From a virus (lineage: Duplodnaviria > Heunggongvirae > Uroviricota > Caudoviricetes): 64,000 nt of DNA. The stretch is from IMG/VR virus record IMGVR_UViG_637000265_000001. One strand, written 5' to 3'. Of the stretch, positions 39,801 to 48,800 are shown in pieces. The position numbers were made by a program. Position 1 is the first letter of the stretch. Every line of letters starts with the position of its first letter.

Positions 39801-42800
39801 TCTGAACGTTTAGCAAGCACCATGTCAGCACCTGCCTGCCACTTTTCAATAAGATGAGGGATAACCTCAATTGGGTCTTGCAGGTCGACATCAATAGGAA
39901 TTACAGCATCGCCGCTTGCATGGTCTAACCCTGCAAATAAGGCTGGTTCTTTACCAAAGTTGCGTGTAAATGACAGCGGAACAACTAGCGGGTCTGAAAC
40001 AGCCAGCGCGTTAATAATTGACTCTGTGGCATCTTTACTTCCGTCATTTATGAATACAATTTCTACTTCATATGGCTTCAACTCTTGGAATTCACGTACC
40101 GTTTTATAGAAAACAGGTATCGCTTCTTCTTCATTGAAGACAGGAACGACAAGAGATATTTTCATTTCGCATCCCTAAAGACAATGAACTTTGAATAGAC
40201 GAAACCGCACACCAGACTGATGGCGGAGAAGGTGATAAGAGTGACTATTGGAGGAAGTGAGCATTTATCAGCTGCCCAACCAACAATCACACTCAATATT
40301 CCCATAAATCCCACGTATAACATGTAGCGCATCGCTGTAGTCGATGCTTTGAATGTGAATCTTGCATTCGCGAAGAAGCTAAAGCTCACAGCCACTACGA
40401 AACCTGTGAAGTTTGCCAGAGCCTGACTGGTATGTGCGGCATAGATACATACACCAAAAACCACCCAGTGTATAAGTGTGTTCAGCACACCTATAGATGT
40501 GTACTTTACAAATAACTTTAACATTTATTTAATCAATGAGCTCTGAAAGGCATGAAGTCTATCATCCAAGTCTCAATTGATCGATACTTGCTATGTCTGA
40601 TGAGACAAAACTGAGACACATAAGGCCTCACAATGGCTTGCAAGGCTTTACATGTTTTGATGTGGTGGGACGTGTGAGCGCAGTGTTGATGGGATAATCC
40701 TTTGAATTACAAGCGGATTCTTATAATTCGTAATGCGAAGGTCGTAGGTTCGACTCCTATTATCGGCACCATTTAAATCAATAAGTTACCTCGCATTTAA
40801 GTAAACCACGTTCTCCTCTTGTGCCGTATTTGTGCCATTGCGACTTATAATCGCATCGATTTTGCTTGCGTGCTCGGTGAGATGCCCGGCTGAAAGGTGG
40901 GCGTATCTTTGAACCATTTCGAGAGTTTCCCATCCTCCCATCTCTTTAAGTGCAAGAAGAGAGACACCGGACTGAACCAGCCAGCTTGCCCAGGTATGCC
41001 TCAGATCATGGAAGCGGAAGTTGCTAATGCCTGCCCGCTTTAACGCTCCCTTCCATGCCTTGTTGCTGTCGGTTCTCATCTTCCTTACCGCTGCTGTTTT
41101 TGTTCCGTCGCTTCGGTAGGCAGGTTTGGTGTGGACAAATACCCATCTCTTATGGAGCCCCTGCTGTTTTCTTAATATCTGGCATGCGGTTTCGTTAAGA
41201 GGAACTCCGATCGCATTGCCAGCTTTTGTTTCATCAGGGTGCATCCATGCCATTTTCTTATCCAGATCGACCTGTGACCACTCAAGGTCTGTAACGTTGG
41301 AACGGCGAAGGCCTGTCGTGATTGCAAACATGACCACAGGGAAGAAGTGAGGAGCAATTTCTGCAAACAGGCGCTTCGATTCCTCCTCTGTAAGCCATCT
41401 GATGCGTCCATTCTTAACGCGTGGTGTTGATATTTTGGGTGCCCTGTCAAGCCATCCCCATTCAACAGCCATATTGAGAATGGCGCGAAGTATTGCCAGA
41501 TGCCTCGTCTTCGTTCCTTTGCTTGCAAGCTTTGGTTTATACTCCGGCACCGGATTGCCAAGTCGCAAACACCTGTCCCGGCTCATCTCCCAGTTCAGGC
41601 GATGGCGGCGGTTTTCCATCCCGTCTACCGCCTCCATTATTTTTTCTGTTGTTATGTCAGAGAGAATGGCTTCTCTGAAGTGCAACATCCAGAACGATAT
41701 AATGCTCTTGTCATCATCAATGGACTTCTTATCCGATTTCTCACGCAGCCACCGTATGCAGGCTTCCTTGAATAGCTTTTTCGGTGATTCCCCGAGATTT
41801 TTTACTCTCCACGCTTCTGCTTTCAGACGATCGTGAAGTTCTTGCGCTTGCCTTTTGTCCGATGTTTCAAGAGAGCGTCTAACTCTTGATCCATCTGGCG
41901 CGACGAAATCGCAGTGCCACGTGCCACCGCGTAGTTTGATTGACATGCTTTAACCTCCTGCACATCAACCGCATTCACCGCGCTATTGTGTCTCACAGAC
42001 TTAAGCGCCGCAATGCAGTCTGACTTGCAAATGCGATATGGGCTTTTAGGTTTATCTGGATTTATCTTTGCGGCCTGAAGTCGTCCACTTCGTATCCACT
42101 GCGTGATAGTGCCTTTGTCTACCTTCAGATACGACGCTGCCTCTTCACGAGTGAAGATTTCTTCTTCCACCTGGAATCTCCATTTATTGGATTGGTATTA
42201 TTGCGGTAGGTCTGGATATCATTGAGCAATGAACAGGCCTCATCGAGTATGAGGCTGTGGTTAGTCCTTGCGTAACTCGCTAATTCTTCTGTAAGTCTCT
42301 GGTGCTTTGTTTCCGTGTATCTTCATTTCAGACTTCAACAGATCAACGAGGGAATCCCATTCGTTGAGGATGCCTTTGAATGCCGGAACGCGCTTTGCAA
42401 CCTTGTCGAATGAATCTCTGATTTCTGGGATCTGCTCAACAAGTGCAACGCATCGTCTGAAATCGGCTGCGTCATGGGGAGCGCCGAAGTGATGACCATA
42501 GATATTCTTTTTCAGTCCACATGCGATTGAGGCAAGAGTTGCGCTACTGATGCCAACATCGCCAGTCGATTGCCATTTCAAAACCTTCATAGCCAAATCT
42601 GACATTTCTTGTCTCCAATAAAAAACCGCCATCAGGCGGCATGGTGTTCTTTCAGTTCCTCAATTCGAATATTGGTTACGTCTGCATGTGCTATCTGCGC
42701 CCATATCATCCAGTGGTTATAGCAGTCGTTGATGTCCTCTGCTTCGATAATCCTGTCGAATGGGTCTCCATTCCATTCACCTGTGACTCGGAAGTGCATT

Positions 42801-45800: not shown

Positions 45801-48800
45801 TATTTATTCCTGCTTTTAGTTGGTGCTTGATTGCCAACTTGTCGGGTTTAATTGTCGTTTCGAACTCAACGTATTCAGGAGGAAGGGCGCTTGAGTCGAA
45901 GATTTCTACAGTTTCTGACGATTTGCGGATTGTTACCTGGTGAATACCTGCTCGAATCTTTTTCTTGCCAACCATTTCAAGCGATGACGCTATATACGCC
46001 ATAATGCTGTTAATCTTATTTTGAATTACTGCGGCTCGCTCATTTAGTGACTTTGCCTCTTCCTTGAGGCGTTCAGCATAACCAGTTTCATTTTTAATGA
46101 CGGAAAGAAGTTGCTCTATTTTATCGGTAAATTCTCCTTCCATGCCTTCTATTGTGTCAGCAATCATCTCTGGTTCTAAATCTGAATCCATCAATTTTGC
46201 GTATTCATTGGCAATTTCATACAGTTTGCTCACTGGCAACCTCCAGTTTCGCTTTGCATTCTATGTAAATGGCTTGTACGTTCTGCTGCAATTTCATTCC
46301 AGATGTCAGGCGATATGCTTCTGCAAAATATCGCTTCAAATCATCCATGTTTTCTGCCTGAGCCATTTCATCGCAAAGAAGTTGTGCTTTATCCATTATT
46401 TCCTGCTGGCGTTTCCGTTCATCTTCGCGGATATCTTCCTCTGATTTGTGCGGCATAACTGGTTCCTGATGCATACCTTCATCTTCGTTAAGCAGGTGAA
46501 TGGCATTATCCAGTCGCTGGGCTTTAGGCCAGTATTTGCTGGCGCGTTTAATTATTGTTTTACGCGCCATCTCTTCCCAGAATGTTTTCCACGGTCCATT
46601 CTTTGCCTTGCTCGTTGCTTCCACAGCTTTAATTTCTGCCAGACTCATTTCTTCAGTCAGGTAGTCACCATCTGCTGTTTTAACCGTGCAATAACCTCCA
46701 ACAATAGAGCCTCGCTCACCAAATGCGTTGTATTTGTGGGTTGGTGCTGAATCAAGGCCATTTGATTCATAGGTGTCGTTTGAGTACACCAGTTTGCATT
46801 GCCCCCACTTAATTGATCCTGTCGATTGCGCAAGATGAAGTAATCCCATGTAACTGATATCAAGGCACACCATGCCGTCGCGAGGAACCAGATAAGCCAG
46901 TTTGCTGGCCGGGTTTAAGGTGATGCCGATCGCCGCAACATTGATGATGGCGTTCTGTGCGCTGGTTGGATTTGCCAGTGCCGTTTTAGCCAGGTAATCA
47001 TTTTTCTGGAAATACTGAATTGCAAACTGGCTTTCCTTAGCCCATGTCACCGTCTGTTCAGTCAATGCTCCGCAGAATAACTGCTCTTGCTGTTTAACGA
47101 ATTCAACGATATTGCTCATGCAGCTTCTCCATAAATATGTCTGCGTTTGAATATTGCGAAGGCATATTCAGCCTTAACTCTTTCGGTTATTGCATCCCAG
47201 AACCATTCAGCGGCTTTTTCCTGATAGTTACAGTCATCATCTTCCAGCCAGTCGATAGCGTCCTTAGTGTGTTCATCTGGCTTATATGAGCGAAGCATTT
47301 CGCTTATTGGGTCGCAACGTTTGCAGAGGCGATCAACTTCACTGTTGATTCGTTCGTAATCTTCATCAGTAAAACTTGCGATTATTTGCGATATTTCACG
47401 CTTATCATTCAGAGTCAGAATCATCATCTTTCTCCTGTTCTTTGTGCTGATTGAGCATTTTGTTCATCTGACGAATGAATTCTTCGTCTGACCAGTTATC
47501 TGTAAAACTCATGGACGGCCTTGTTGTTTCAAAATATCCCAAAGCTTTTCGAGCAAACTTTTCATTCTTGGTTGTTTAAAGTCTGCTCCGGTTAAAATAT
47601 TTTTTCGTGAATGCTGTACCGATAAAATCGGGTTGAAAGGGCGGGTAATGCTGCCAACTTACTGATTTAGTGTATGATGGTGATTTTAAGGTGCTTGCGT
47701 GGCTTCCATTTCCATCAGATGTCCTTCCTGCTCCGCTACTGAAGGCGTGGTGCGTAACGGCAAAAGCACTGCCGGACATCAGCGCTATCTCTGCTCTCAT
47801 TGCCGTAAAACATGGCAACTACAGTTCACTTACACCGCCTCTCAGCCCGGTACGCACCAGAAAATCATTGATATGGCCATGAATGGCGTCGGATGTCGCG
47901 CCAGTGCACGCATTATGGGCGTTGGCCTCAACACGGTTTTACGTCACTTAAAAAACTCAGGCCGCAGTCGGTAACCTCGCGCATACAACCGGGCAGTGAT
48001 GTGATTGTCTGCGCTGAAATGGACGAACATTGGGGCTACGTCGGTGCTAAATCACGTCAGCGCTGGCTGTTTTACGCGTATGACAGGATACGGAGGACGG
48101 TTGTGGCGCACGTCTTCGGTGAACGCACTCTGGCCACACTGGAGCGTCTTCTGAGCCTGCTGTCGGCCTTTGAGGTCGTGGTATGGATGACGGATGGCTG
48201 GCCGCTGTATGAATCACGCCTGAAGGGAAAGCTGCACGTTATCAGCAAGCGTTACACTCAGCGCATTGAGCGACATAATCTGAATCTGAGACAACATCTG
48301 GCAAGGCTGGTACGGAAGTCACTGTCGTTCTCAAAATCGGTGGAGCTGCATGACAAGGTCATCGGGCATTATCTGAACATAAAACACTATCAGTAAGTTG
48401 GAGTCATTACCGAAAGGGCGAACCGATGCCGCCCCTGCAATAGCGAACTGTTGCATAGGATGCTCCTTCTGTTTGATTGCATAACGAAAACGCCTCGAGT
48501 GAAGCGTTATTGGTATGCATATAAAAAGGCCCTCACATTGGAGGGCAAAGAAGATTTCCAATAATCAGAACAAGTCGGCTCCTGTTTAGTTACGAGCGAC
48601 ATTGCTCCGTGTATTCACTCGTTGGAATGAATACACAGTGCAGTGTTTATTCTGTTATTTATGCCAAAAATAAAGGCCACTATCAGGCAGCTTTGTTGTT
48701 CTGTTAACCAAGTTCTCTGGCAATCATTGCCGTCGTTCGTATTGCCCATTTATCGACATATTTCCCATCTTCCATTACAGGAAACATTTCTTCAGGCTTA

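Follow-up and report, generated by a model that had tools for sequence, protein, structure and literature searches.

The interval 42261-47427 of the window (the whole stretch of 64,000 nucleotides that was analysed) very probably, with a likelihood of about 80%, represents the central/left part of the N-antiterminated pL operon of a defective P22-like lambdoid prophage with gtrA/gtrB in S. flexneri 5 str. 8401, and comprises a Rec module and a mosaic ea block. The initial annotation had described an early-left accessory cluster in a temperate lambdoid phage, with about ten small co-directional genes between xis and the cIII/ral region. Gene content and gene order uphold this identity: eleven co-directional ORFs were found at its coordinates, all on the minus strand, between xis (41823-42170) and the cIII/ral region. 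The prophage reads gtrB, gtrA, int, xis, ea genes, Rec genes, cIII, ral, sieB, N, the order also seen in P22 and HK140, and the assignments of SieB and the other flanking genes were confirmed.

The ORFs are packed as in an operon. An ATGA stop/start overlap joins the 103-aa ORF to recT (47116-47119) and a second one the DUF2737 gene to the next ORF (45244-45247). Other junctions are overlaps or gaps of at most 16 nt, 42800-42986 being the sole sizeable non-coding gap. Nine of ten block products are exact database sequences, the 90% clusters have up to 1501 members, and several products have exact S. flexneri 5 str. 8401 accessions (ABF02537-41); the ORFs are real genes rather than chance ORFs. 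The DUF551, Ea22, Gp157 and RecT labels given earlier are backed by Pfam at E-values from 1e-20 to 1e-38. Coverage of the block by any single phage record is at most 64%.

A nuclease-free recombination module

The right part of the block holds the following features:

47405-47512, minus strand: 35-aa acidic ORF, its ATG overlapping the cIII stop (ATGA); phrog_17766, E 5e-16; 100% identical in HK140, unannotated there
47116-47427, minus strand: 103-aa acidic helical protein, phrog_3486; pI 4.65, net charge -9; ATGA overlap with recT; 100% identical to HK140 gp42 and mEpX1 gp35
46217-47119, minus strand: RecT-family single-strand annealing protein, 300 aa; PF03837, E 1.3e-33; phrog_148, E 9e-92; 87% identical to HK140 gp41; exact ABF02541
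45751-46233, minus strand: Siphovirus Gp157-family protein, 160 aa, putative 'MuGam-type' end protector/anti-RecBCD protein; PF05565 (Sipho_Gp157), E 1.2e-38; phrog_253, E 1e-53; 94% identical to HK140 gp40
45425-45739, minus strand: 104-aa basic protein with two Myb/SANT-like HTH repeats at the 3' flank of the Rec cassette; phrog_323, E 2e-20; 100% identical to HK140 gp39

In this order, the five products would form a module in which RecT anneals single strands, the Gp157 protein sits on double-strand ends and excludes RecBCD, and the HTH and 103-aa proteins serve as accessory components. A phage nuclease would be dispensable because host nucleases or replication would furnish the single strands, as in P22, which has Erf and Abc and no exonuclease.

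RecT without an evident partner exonuclease had already been noted. Both points held, and no block ORF matched an exonuclease, or any other nuclease or SSB family, in Pfam, PHROG and NCBIfam searches. The Rec module of HK140 has been described as SAP type 4 plus a MuGam-type anti-RecBCD function, without nuclease and without SSB; HK140 gp40 was scored as MuGam, and no nuclease was present in 84 of the 246 Rec modules from Enterobacterales (Zheng et al. 2025, PMC12315714). Since HK140-type modules are published as nuclease-free, RecT and Gp157 constitute, by their sequence, an already catalogued module of this type, and the absence of an exonuclease is no anomaly. Because the pair matches the SAP plus MuGam-type module of HK140, the anti-RecBCD gene of the block is likely the Gp157 gene, which had been named and left uninterpreted in the initial annotation. 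No Chi site occurs between 29 and 64 kb of the window, in keeping with a phage that excludes RecBCD (PMC12315714).

The likely true start of Gp157 is the GTG at 46233, giving the length of 160 aa common to all homologues. Its family, phrog_253, is labelled 'Mu Gam-like end protection'. In the tests that we ran, homology of Gp157 (PHROG 253) to Mu Gam (PHROG 491) was not demonstrable: the score against PF07352 was 17.5 bits, below the gathering threshold of 28.3 bits, six of 30 Gp157 family members reached this profile at E<0.1, and hhalign gave a probability of only 1.2%. A Foldseek search with the AF2 model (pLDDT 82.7) returned no Ku or Gam structure from the PDB, and mainly other Gp157 proteins from BFVD. 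With these weak results, the case for the putative end protection comes from the PHROG label and the published AlphaFold-based classification.

The HTH protein (pI 9.86, net charge +7) belongs to a profile family, phrog_323, that is also matched by P22 Abc1 (E 1e-23), by Mu gp9 (E 5e-29) and by a 102-aa ORF following the Rec cassette in a related IMG/VR locus, L008 (E 6.7e-15); by sequence, the same ORF trails the cassette in the other IMG/VR loci. BLASTP linked the 104-aa protein to Mu gp9 (E 5e-5), while pairwise BLAST with P22 Abc1 was empty, the link to Abc1 being at PHROG-profile level only. We thus place it, on sequence grounds, as a probable member of the Abc1/Mu gp9 family.

HK140 and mEpX1 have the same gene order as the window from cIII to DUF2737, and their module likewise contains no nuclease and no SSB. 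The 35-aa, 103-aa and HTH proteins of HK140 are identical to those of the window, with Gp157 at 94% and RecT at 87%. However, the ea block of HK140 is a different mosaic, covering only 61% of the interval, and the window differs from both phages in a cIII split by IS1, one truncated ea gene, the Shigella host and a defective prophage. P22 (gtrB-gtrA-attP-int-xis-ea genes-abc2-abc1-erf-arf-kil-c3-ral-sieB-24) has the same overall architecture and shares with the window gtrAB beside int, an annealing protein without nuclease, DUF2737 (orf56), EaA/EaE-like modules and a phrog_323 HTH accessory protein (Abc1 in P22) adjoining an anti-RecBCD gene, putative in the window. From P22 to the window, Erf is exchanged for RecT, Abc2 for Gp157 and Arf for the 103-aa protein, no pair being homologous, and kil is missing. 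The Mu gp9 and Gam pair also sets a phrog_323 HTH protein beside an end-protection gene, as do the HTH and Gp157 genes here (end protection being putative in the window), although the gene order is reversed.

IS1 insertion and decay of the prophage

Two features lie upstream of the module in the same operon:

48704-48883, minus strand: ral (restriction alleviation), 59 of 59 residues identical to lambda Ral
47644-48411, plus strand: IS1 as read from the sequence, 768 bp, with insA/insB on the plus strand, inside the cIII-like gene

The split of cIII is absent from the initial annotation. IS1 is flanked by a 9-bp target duplication, CGCCCTTTC, at 47635-47643 and 48412-48420, leaving the cIII halves at 48456-48412 and 47634-47509. 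Undisrupted 56-aa cIII homologues with a matching N-terminus occur in three related loci (L018, L019 and L021). Decay also shows in a duplicated 3' end of int, in an IS4 that separates cro from cII and in an IS3-family element at the right end.

The block could be inert cargo, with IS1 stopping read-through from pL and the genes of a defective prophage drifting to pseudogenes. The position of IS1 between pL and the block, the other insertion elements and the int duplication in the same prophage, and one block ORF (the hkaH/EaE-like remnant described below) that is already broken are in line with this possibility. However, the ten other block ORFs remain intact, several have counterparts of 100% identity in the viable phages HK140 and mEpX1, and N and the nutL-side genes look intact. 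N antitermination classically overcomes IS polarity, which counts against any polar effect of IS1. We consider inert cargo possible, though on the unlikely side, and prefer the pL operon with Rec module and ea block.

A small acidic protein family 5' of the recombination cassette

The 103-aa ORF is real, conserved, acidic and uncharacterised, and from its ATGA overlap it appears to be translationally coupled to recT. Its family comprises 48 representatives at 50% clustering and keeps a length of about 100 aa down to 27% identity. The AF2 model (pLDDT 75) is all-helical, with helices at residues 6-17, 21-37 and 68-97, and a fold search that included the PDB entries of lambda Gam and P22 Abc2 gave no match at E<4.6. 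The 35-aa ORF, overlooked previously, is conserved 5' of the 103-aa gene, and homologous ORFs of 40-44 aa are found in IMG/VR loci.

Wherever the sequence of a related locus extends far enough downstream, a member of the 103-aa family immediately precedes the recombination cassette on its 5' side, and the stop and start codons at the junction usually overlap by 1 or 4 nt. The lone break of this adjacency is a 70-aa HTH ORF inserted in L013 and L014. The cassettes that follow the family are:

RecT + Gp157: window, HK140, L006-L021
RecE-like + phrog_11517: L008, L019
Bet + Exo: L026, L029
ExoVIII + RecT: L027
RecT + Exo + SSB: L028
Erf-like + Exo: L024
phrog_2489 + Gp157: L023

This position is that of lambda gam, phi80 gamL and P22 arf. 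Phi80 GamL (93 aa), located immediately 5' of a RecT-type gene, resembles the 103-aa ORF in position, length and acidic helical character, but shows no significant sequence or profile similarity to it and, unlike the window ORF, comes with the modifier Mog and with Exo.

The protein might thus be an unrecognised lambdoid Rec component, either an inhibitor of RecBCD or another host nuclease at the Gam position or an Arf-like cofactor of the first Rec protein, as in P22. Its location 5' of the cassette whatever the cassette type and its conserved length favour such a role, as do the Bet + Exo loci, which have no recognisable Gam and carry the family exactly at the lambda gam and phi80 gamL site. 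Nevertheless, hhalign gave a probability of 8% (single sequence) or 1.3% (alignment) for phi80 GamL and 3% for lambda Gam, and the model matched neither Gam nor Abc2 structures. A second anti-RecBCD gene would be redundant, because HK140-type modules already hold a putative one. The gene could equally be placed in the upstream cIII/kil block, its constant position then reflecting a mosaic boundary, and it was not flagged as a Rec gene in PMC12315714. We regard a Rec function of the 103-aa protein as doubtful.

The mosaic ea block and the anti-defence question

Between the module and xis, the block contains:

45244-45408, minus strand: DUF2737 protein, 54 aa, basic, P22 orf56 homologue; PF10930, E 8.2e-30; 74% identical to P22 orf56, 94-98% to HK140 and PhiR12
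44785-45265, minus strand: HK620-hkaH/EaE-like remnant; 118-aa frame 45247-44891, 3' module 44930-44785 in another frame
44471-44788, minus strand: 105-aa strongly acidic protein, pI 4.05, net charge -16; phrog_3126, E 1e-65
43828-44484, minus strand: Ead/Ea22-like coiled-coil protein, 218 aa; PF13935 (Ead_Ea22), E 2.7e-29; exact ABF02537
42987-43868, minus strand: DUF551-domain protein with modular EaA-like N-terminus and C-terminal DUF551; PF04448, E 1.6e-20, residues 224-289
42819-42870, minus strand: two terminator-like hairpins in the gap 42800-42986, of putative function
42632-42799, minus strand: 55-aa acidic ORF, homologue of lambda lambdap35 and HK140 gp31 (89% to both); phrog_676, E 2e-36; 1501-member cluster
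42625-42640, minus strand: terminator-like hairpin GCCGCCTGATGGCGGT plus T run at the 55-aa/123-aa ORF junction, of putative function
42261-42632, minus strand: 123-aa ORF, pI 8.9, between the lambda-orf55-like gene and xis; phrog_1229 (unknown function), E 2e-51; exact S. flexneri 2002017 ADA72641

The ea block, made up of DUF2737, the hkaH/EaE-like remnant, the 105-aa module, Ead/Ea22, DUF551, the lambda-orf55-like gene and the 123-aa ORF, would be the counterpart of the lambda exo-xis region, its genes apparently assembled from shuffled domains joined at conserved linkers. The lambda Red/exo-xis region (gam-bet-exo, orf60a/63/61, ea22, ea8.5, orf55, xis) occupies the same operon between cIII and xis. 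Lambda and the window share Ea22 (N-terminal half, 52%), orf55 (lambdap35, 89%) and an identical Ral, whereas Exo, a lambda-type Gam, orf60a, orf61, orf63 and ea8.5 are missing from the window.

Mosaic junctions lie at the linker TPATDAFLAE. The ORF 44891-45265 (pI 4.62) starts at the ATG at 45247, matches HK620 hkaH at 98% identity over the first 342 nt and loses its frame at this linker; an ATGA overlap joins the end of the 3' module to the gene that follows. Full-length relatives have 158 aa, and the fused ORF was found in one piece in no phage record; the ORF of the window is a truncated chimera with the frame broken at a mosaic junction. The 105-aa ORF, likewise a real and conserved acidic protein of uncharacterised role, carries on its own a module found elsewhere as the N-terminal domain of longer 'ea' proteins, which run on into the linker TPATDAFLAEVRA and other domains. 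It has 269 relatives, with at least 78% identity among the matches listed, an invariant C62, a nearly invariant C55 and the motif KRYE...DG.YV.FDDV; a PDB profile search was empty.

The Ead/Ea22-like protein shares 64% identity with HK140 gp35 and, within the N-terminal 104 aa, 52% with lambda Ea22. For the DUF551 protein, whose PHROG matches are all labelled 'unknown', the likely start is 43826 (M15), and the 279-aa product that results matches an S. flexneri protein exactly. The 123-aa ORF probably starts at M10 (42605), giving 114 aa: M10 is preceded by a GGAG at a distance of 8 nt, and residue 10 is where the PHROG alignment begins. It had no match in Pfam, NCBIfam or PADLOC. In lambda, lambdap35 is the gene adjoining xis, and HK140 is annotated with a rho-independent terminator at the site equivalent to hairpin 42625-42640, after its lambdap35-like gene. 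The scanned region contains 20 terminator-like sites versus 8.8 +/- 2.6 in shuffles.

The exo-xis region is mosaic and affects lysogeny, and the studied relatives (Ea22, orf60a, orf61 and orf63 of lambda and Stx phages) tune the lysis-lysogeny decision (PMC7093339, PMC10834534). By analogy, the ea genes of the window may have developmental roles. We know of no studied ea relative that blocks defence systems.

The initial annotation had put forward four unassigned acidic proteins as anti-defence candidates. Acidity was borne out for 44471-44788, 47116-47427 and 44891-45265, but not for 45425-45739, the basic HTH protein of the Abc1/Mu gp9 PHROG, which was rejected; 44891-45265 was rejected as an intact candidate because it is the truncated remnant. 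The suggested homology search of anti-defence catalogues brought no PADLOC match for the uncharacterised ORFs, which also lacked matches in NCBIfam, the PDB and among known Gam, GamL and Abc2 proteins; the 105-aa and 103-aa proteins had no Pfam match either. The structure check, covering 47116-47427, led to the helical model above and to no fold match. Ral is, by sequence, the sole evident characterised anti-defence gene nearby. Not all block ORFs match characterised housekeeping early genes, so the anti-defence idea survives, and some of the 123-aa, 55-aa, 105-aa, 103-aa and 35-aa ORFs may have such a role, yet nothing shows the small acidic proteins to be new anti-defence factors, the support being limited to location and charge.

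That these proteins are host-defence inhibitors (DNA mimics, anti-restriction, anti-RecBCD or similar) made early from pL beside ral is the least probable reading: they do lie 1.3-4 kb downstream of ral, two are truly acidic, gene content in this highly mosaic region changes from phage to phage, as arms-race genes would be expected to do, and P22 has anti-RecBCD genes in the same region, but only two of the four candidates stand, neither matched a known family in Pfam, NCBIfam, PADLOC or PDB sequences, their peptides are absent from the supplementary files of two large enterobacterial phage accessory-gene screens, and Ea22 C-terminal domains, which act in lysogeny control, typically have acidic surfaces too.

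The region is thus ordinary and largely known already, a typical early-left operon from a lambda/P22-like prophage in decay, and the constant placement of the 103-aa family 5' of the cassette and coupled to it, across seven cassette types, is a modest new observation.

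Layout and annotation of the early-left block

The block at 42261-47427, part of a lambdoid prophage of Shigella flexneri 5 str. 8401, contains eleven co-directional minus-strand ORFs bounded by xis (41823-42170) and the cIII/ral region, in agreement with the gene arrangement read initially from the sequence. The flanking order is gtrB, gtrA, int, xis, the block, cIII split by IS1, ral, sieB (plus strand) and N, followed beyond N by a cI-like repressor gene, cro, IS4, cII, replication genes, nin genes, Q and lysis genes; overall, this neighbourhood follows the plan of P22. The genes are packed as in an operon, with ATGA stop/start overlaps at 47116-47119 and 45244-45247. 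The remaining junctions overlap or are spaced by at most 16 nt; larger gaps are confined to 42800-42986 and to the one that a broken gene has left. Promoter-like sites were not enriched (11 versus 13 expected), hence there is no sign of internal promoters, and an Rfam scan of 40-51 kb found no RNA family. The block is composed of two parts, a recombination (Rec) module and a mosaic "ea" block, the latter being the equivalent of the exo-xis region of lambda.

Principal features of the block
47512-45425, minus strand: Rec module (35-aa, 103-aa, RecT, Gp157 and HTH genes)
47116-47427, minus strand: 103-aa acidic protein
45425-45739, minus strand: 104-aa HTH protein
45408-42261, minus strand: mosaic ea block
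44891-45265, minus strand: remnant of a broken gene
44471-44788, minus strand: 105-aa acidic protein
47644-48411: complete IS1, 768 bp, within the cIII-like gene

Exact database sequences were found for 9 of 10 block products, among them accessions ABF02537-ABF02541 (Shigella flexneri 5 str. 8401), and belong to 90% clusters with up to 1501 members. Because of these exact matches in populated clusters, the block ORFs are real genes. Phage records span at most 64% of the block; those that match best, Gally, HK140 and mEpX1, all align as mosaic pieces at 92-97% identity. The family labels assigned initially hold in Pfam for DUF551 (PF04448, E 1.6e-20, 74.2 bits against a gathering cut-off of 22), Ead/Ea22 (PF13935, E 2.7e-29, 102.9 bits against 27), Siphovirus Gp157 (E 1.2e-38) and RecT (E 1.3e-33), and a DUF2737 match was added (PF10930, E 8.2e-30, 102.9 bits against 25). 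The true starts are likely at 43826 for the DUF551 protein, at 42605 for the 123-aa ORF and at GTG 46233 for Gp157, which from there measures 160 aa, the same length as all homologues. Literature searches on Gp157 with RecT, on mEpX1/HK140 function and on DUF551 yielded no functional data for the uncharacterised block ORFs.

The initial annotation had proposed four acidic proteins as anti-defence candidates. The computed pI is indeed low for 44471-44788 (4.05), 47116-47427 (4.65) and 44891-45265 (4.62), although the last of these is a remnant with a frame break and not an intact gene. The fourth, 45425-45739, is basic (computed pI 9.86, net +7). Further acidic ORFs are the 55-aa ORF (4.87) and the 35-aa ORF at 47405-47512 (4.36, computed on its 45-aa TTG-start form). 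Searches of the uncharacterised ORFs with PADLOC and NCBIfam found nothing, the only row being a 14.7-bit chance match to Rad50. Neither 44471-44788 nor 47116-47427 matched a described anti-defence or DNA-mimic family in Pfam, NCBIfam or PADLOC (e.g. Ocr, ArdA, Abc2, Ral), and the best hit of a PDB profile search with the 105-aa family had an E value of 1.8. Peptides of the block ORFs were absent from the supplementary files of two published accessory-gene screens. Across the PADLOC, NCBIfam, Pfam and PDB searches, the anti-defence reading of the acidic ORFs, still a candidate one, gained no positive evidence. Of the initial annotation, the observation is partly confirmed and the interpretation partly supported. 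The product of the nearby ral gene matches lambda Ral at 59/59 residues. Just downstream of the cI-like repressor gene, at 50261-50737, lies an ORF, 134-158 aa long, whose N-terminal segment is hydrophobic and for which Pfam gave no match. It occupies the rex/moron position, a more typical spot than the block for a prophage exclusion or defence gene.

Domain shuffling in the ea block and decay of the prophage

Among the ea products, the 55-aa ORF shares 89% identity with lambda lambdap35 and the DUF2737 protein 74% with P22 orf56. ORF 44891-45265 is the remnant of a broken gene. It really begins with the ATG at 45247, overlapping the stop codon of DUF2737, and over its first 342 nt it shares 98% identity with HK620 hkaH. 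The frame breaks right after a conserved linker, ...TPATDAFLAE; a different C-terminal module, read in another frame, occupies the next 146 nt and is joined to the following gene by an ATGA overlap. Full-length relatives of the broken gene measure 158 aa, PhiR12 carries three separate genes at the equivalent place, and tblastn with the conceptually repaired protein found a one-piece version in no phage.

The listed relatives of the 105-aa acidic protein (phrog_3126) are all at least 78% identical. In its family C62 is invariant and C55 nearly so, forming a Cys pair, and a KRYE...DG.YV.FDDV motif is present. In other genomes this module stands as the N-terminal domain in proteins of 148-175 aa, which run on through a TPATDAFLAEVRA linker into various C-terminal domains. 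The truncated gene breaks at this linker too, and so does a chimera that involves the 103-aa family. Since modules vary around the common TPATDAFLAEVRA linker, the ea genes are combinatorial domain mosaics. The string TPATDAFLAE(V/I)RA (window 44925-44960; also in proteins P0139, P0151 and P0162) recurs in several early-left protein families, where it connects N- and C-terminal domains that are interchangeable, and it has the look of a recombination joint at which domains are shuffled. Acidic, interchangeable C-terminal domains have likewise been described for Ea22 variants (PMC10834534). Experiments on exo-xis genes of lambda and Stx phages point to modulated lysogenisation and induction, with Ea22 being pro-lysogenic and orf60a, orf61 and orf63 pro-lytic (PMC7093339, PMC10834534). 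This work does not point toward anti-defence.

The prophage shows signs of decay. The IS1 that splits the cIII-like gene is flanked by a 9-bp target duplication, CGCCCTTTC (47635-47643 and 48412-48420), and lies between pL/ral and the whole block, in an orientation opposing pL transcription. An IS4-family transposase gene (Nterm_IS4 plus DDE_Tnp_1, 51694-53040) is inserted between cro and cII, a further sign of a defective prophage. The spacing between gtrA and int is only about 260 bp (40524-40786), a circular or attP-like arrangement unlike opposite prophage ends, and at 63642-64000, beside an IS3-family element, 359 nt of the int 3' end recur in inverted orientation at 99% identity. Together, these two features suggest tandem or rearranged prophages. 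In addition, an IS copy forms a perfect inverted repeat of 838 nt at 20924-21761 and 62377-63214, its right arm entering IS3-family orfA/orfB ORFs at 62442-63598. It brackets about 40 kb, including the whole early region, and is a potential inversion substrate.

A Rec module without a nuclease

The Rec module lies midway along the early-left operon, between the cIII/kil and ea/xis genes. Its 35-aa, 103-aa and 104-aa proteins are 100% identical to their HK140 counterparts, while RecT (PF03837; phrog_148 E 9e-92) is 87% identical to HK140 gp41 and the Gp157 ORF 94% identical to gp40. RecT is the single-strand annealing protein (SAP) of a lambdoid Rec module. No ORF in 42261-47542 matched a nuclease in Pfam, PHROGs or NCBIfam, which bears out the earlier remark that no partner exonuclease is evident, and the same search found no SSB family. 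In their survey of 325 lambdoid phages, Zheng, Casjens, Davidson, Amundsen and Smith (Genome Res 2025, PMC12315714) reported 84 of 246 Enterobacterales Rec modules to be devoid of a nuclease and cited HK140 as an example, with a SAP of sequence type 4 and a MuGam-type anti-RecBCD protein, but without phage SSB or nuclease. RecT without an exonuclease therefore corresponds to an already published type of Rec module, a putative anti-RecBCD protein plus a SAP with neither nuclease nor SSB (P22 as functional type, HK140 as sequence type); P22 Erf plus Abc is a functional parallel of RecT with Gp157. Chi sites (GCTGGTGG) are missing from both strands of 29000-64000, the five of the window all lying in 1-29 kb. 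This lack fits the rule by which Chi sites are few in phages that possess anti-RecBCD genes (PMC12315714).

An anti-RecBCD role in the block belongs most plausibly to Gp157, the presumed anti-RecBCD component of the module. The protein matches PF05565 over profile positions 1-162 of 162 (133 bits against a cut-off of 28.6). The profile of the Mu Gam/Ku end-binding family (PF07352) aligned nearly end to end, protein 43-159 with profile 33-147 of 149 positions, at 17.5 bits and E 0.004, below the 28.3-bit cut-off, and 6 of 30 Gp157 family members matched this profile. Mu Gam and Gp157 fall into different PHROGs (phrog_491 and phrog_253), both labelled "Mu Gam-like end protection". Profile-profile comparison gave an hhalign probability of 1.2%; homology to Mu Gam was thus rejected as a demonstrated relation and stays as a literature and PHROG label. 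The AF2 model (pLDDT 82.7) consists of a 68-residue helix (21-88) and a small beta domain. In a search for a Ku-like fold, Foldseek with this model retrieved nothing from the PDB below E 0.5, a comparison limited by the long free helix of a monomer model, and the top 50 in BFVD were mainly other Gp157 proteins and no named Mu Gam. Sequence and profile searches of the PDB with Gp157 gave nothing significant. With the link to Mu Gam a tentative one in these comparisons, end protection by Gp157 would rest on the literature. BFVD also returned weak matches of the model to PD-(D/E)XK, RecB-like and COG5377 exonuclease-annotated proteins (E 0.006 to 1); judging from these matches, a Gp157-like domain may be fused to recombination nucleases in some phage proteins.

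The basic ORF, 45425-45739, lies directly 3' of the Gp157 gene and encodes two Myb/SANT-like repeats. It matches phrog_323 (E 2.2e-20), as do P22 Abc1 (E 1.3e-23) and Mu gp9 (E 5.2e-29), the latter encoded immediately next to Mu gam. A 102-aa ORF after the cassette in one IMG/VR relative (L008) also matches (E 6.7e-15), and an Abc1-type 102-aa ORF, the same by sequence, follows RecT-Gp157 in most IMG/VR relatives. BLASTP aligned the HTH protein with Mu gp9 at E 5e-5, and in a multiple alignment it clusters with gp9, apart from Abc1. A direct orthology with Abc1 had no pairwise support, BLASTP giving no alignment at E<=100. When the PDB was searched with the HTH protein, by sequence and by profile, nothing significant was found. 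The protein is best described as an accessory member of the Abc1/gp9 family that borders the Rec cassette on its 3' side. Abc1 promotes P22 recombination (PMC12315714), and P22 Abc1 sets off a P4-borne abortive system. A phrog_323 HTH gene stands beside an end-protection or anti-RecBCD gene in three otherwise unrelated contexts, an adjacency that hints at a conserved functional pairing.

Adjacency of phrog_323 HTH genes and end-protection or anti-RecBCD genes
Phage Mu (L022, 1483-2326): gp9 with the end protector Gam
P22 (L004, 6631-7255): Abc1 with the anti-RecBCD protein Abc2
Window (45425-46233): 104-aa HTH protein with Gp157

A small protein family at the gam position

The 103-aa protein (phrog_3486; HK140 gp42, mEpX1 gp35) is acidic and helical and belongs to a small family of Enterobacterales phages, comprising 48 representatives at 50% clustering in an exhaustive search. 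Nearly all members are about 100 aa long, with identities down to 27%. The gene lies in the slot of lambda gam and phi80 gamL, that is, in the pL operon immediately 5' of the gene for the annealing protein. Gene context was surveyed in 16 IMG/VR loci retrieved with one distant family member and in 7 retrieved with three others; one distant member had no relatives among viral contigs. In the surveyed loci the family member is found directly 5' of a recombination cassette and is translationally coupled to it, the two usually overlapping by 1 or 4 nt. The cassettes that follow are diverse: RecT+Gp157, RecE-like+phrog_11517, Bet+Exo, ExoVIII+RecT, RecT+Exo+SSB (read by eye), Erf-like+Exo and phrog_2489+Gp157. 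The only breaks found in this adjacency are in two loci where a 70-aa winged-helix/HTH ORF lies between the family gene and recT (L013 3800-4012, L014 2646-2858). Loci with Bet+Exo that carry the family contain no recognisable Gam.

Homology to lambda Gam or GamL was considered and, at sequence level, rejected. The hhalign probability was 3.1% with lambda Gam, and 8.2% and 1.3% with GamL; the PHROGs differ as well (3486 for the 103-aa protein versus 1050 and 259). The AF2 model is all-helical and of moderate quality (pLDDT 75). When this model was compared with the PDB by Foldseek, the best E was 4.6 and no Gam entry was among those listed, although the PDB includes lambda Gam as 2UUZ/5MBV (cited in PMC12315714). 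The best E of a PDB profile search with the family was 0.13.

Possibly, phrog_3486 is a fifth component, so far unrecognised, that lambdoid Rec modules carry at the gam position, a doubtful reading to which we give about one chance in five. The family might then be a new inhibitor, non-homologous to the known ones, that acts on RecBCD, another host nuclease or a defence sensor; alternatively, it could be a universal cofactor loading the first Rec protein. The Gam-like and the cofactor role are both positional hypotheses.

On the lambda/P22 paradigm, N-antiterminated pL transcripts would, upon induction or infection, cross ral, the cIII gene split by IS1, and the Rec module. They would then pass through the ea block and the hairpins at 42870-42819 and 42640-42625 into xis and int. 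RecT, as is known for its family, would anneal single strands, possibly supplied by host nucleases or replication by analogy with P22, and Gp157, as classified in the literature, would shield DNA ends from RecBCD. The ea genes may, by analogy, modulate development or host physiology, and IS1 may reduce expression of the block in the Shigella host.

In sum, the prophage is decaying and the block is its early-left region, an ordinary one that for the most part had been described before. As a textbook lambdoid arrangement in a sequenced Shigella genome it has little significance as it stands; its value is a cleaned annotation, in which real ORFs are separated from broken ones, the HTH gene is placed as a relative of Abc1 and Mu gp9, and Gp157 is a putative anti-RecBCD protein. 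The 103-aa family at the gam position is the sole lead here that deserves a bench test, and identical genes are present in HK140 and mEpX1, both viable and tractable phages. If its members are nuclease inhibitors or Rec cofactors, the family would add a component to the lambdoid recombination modules and might explain Bet-Exo modules without Gam.
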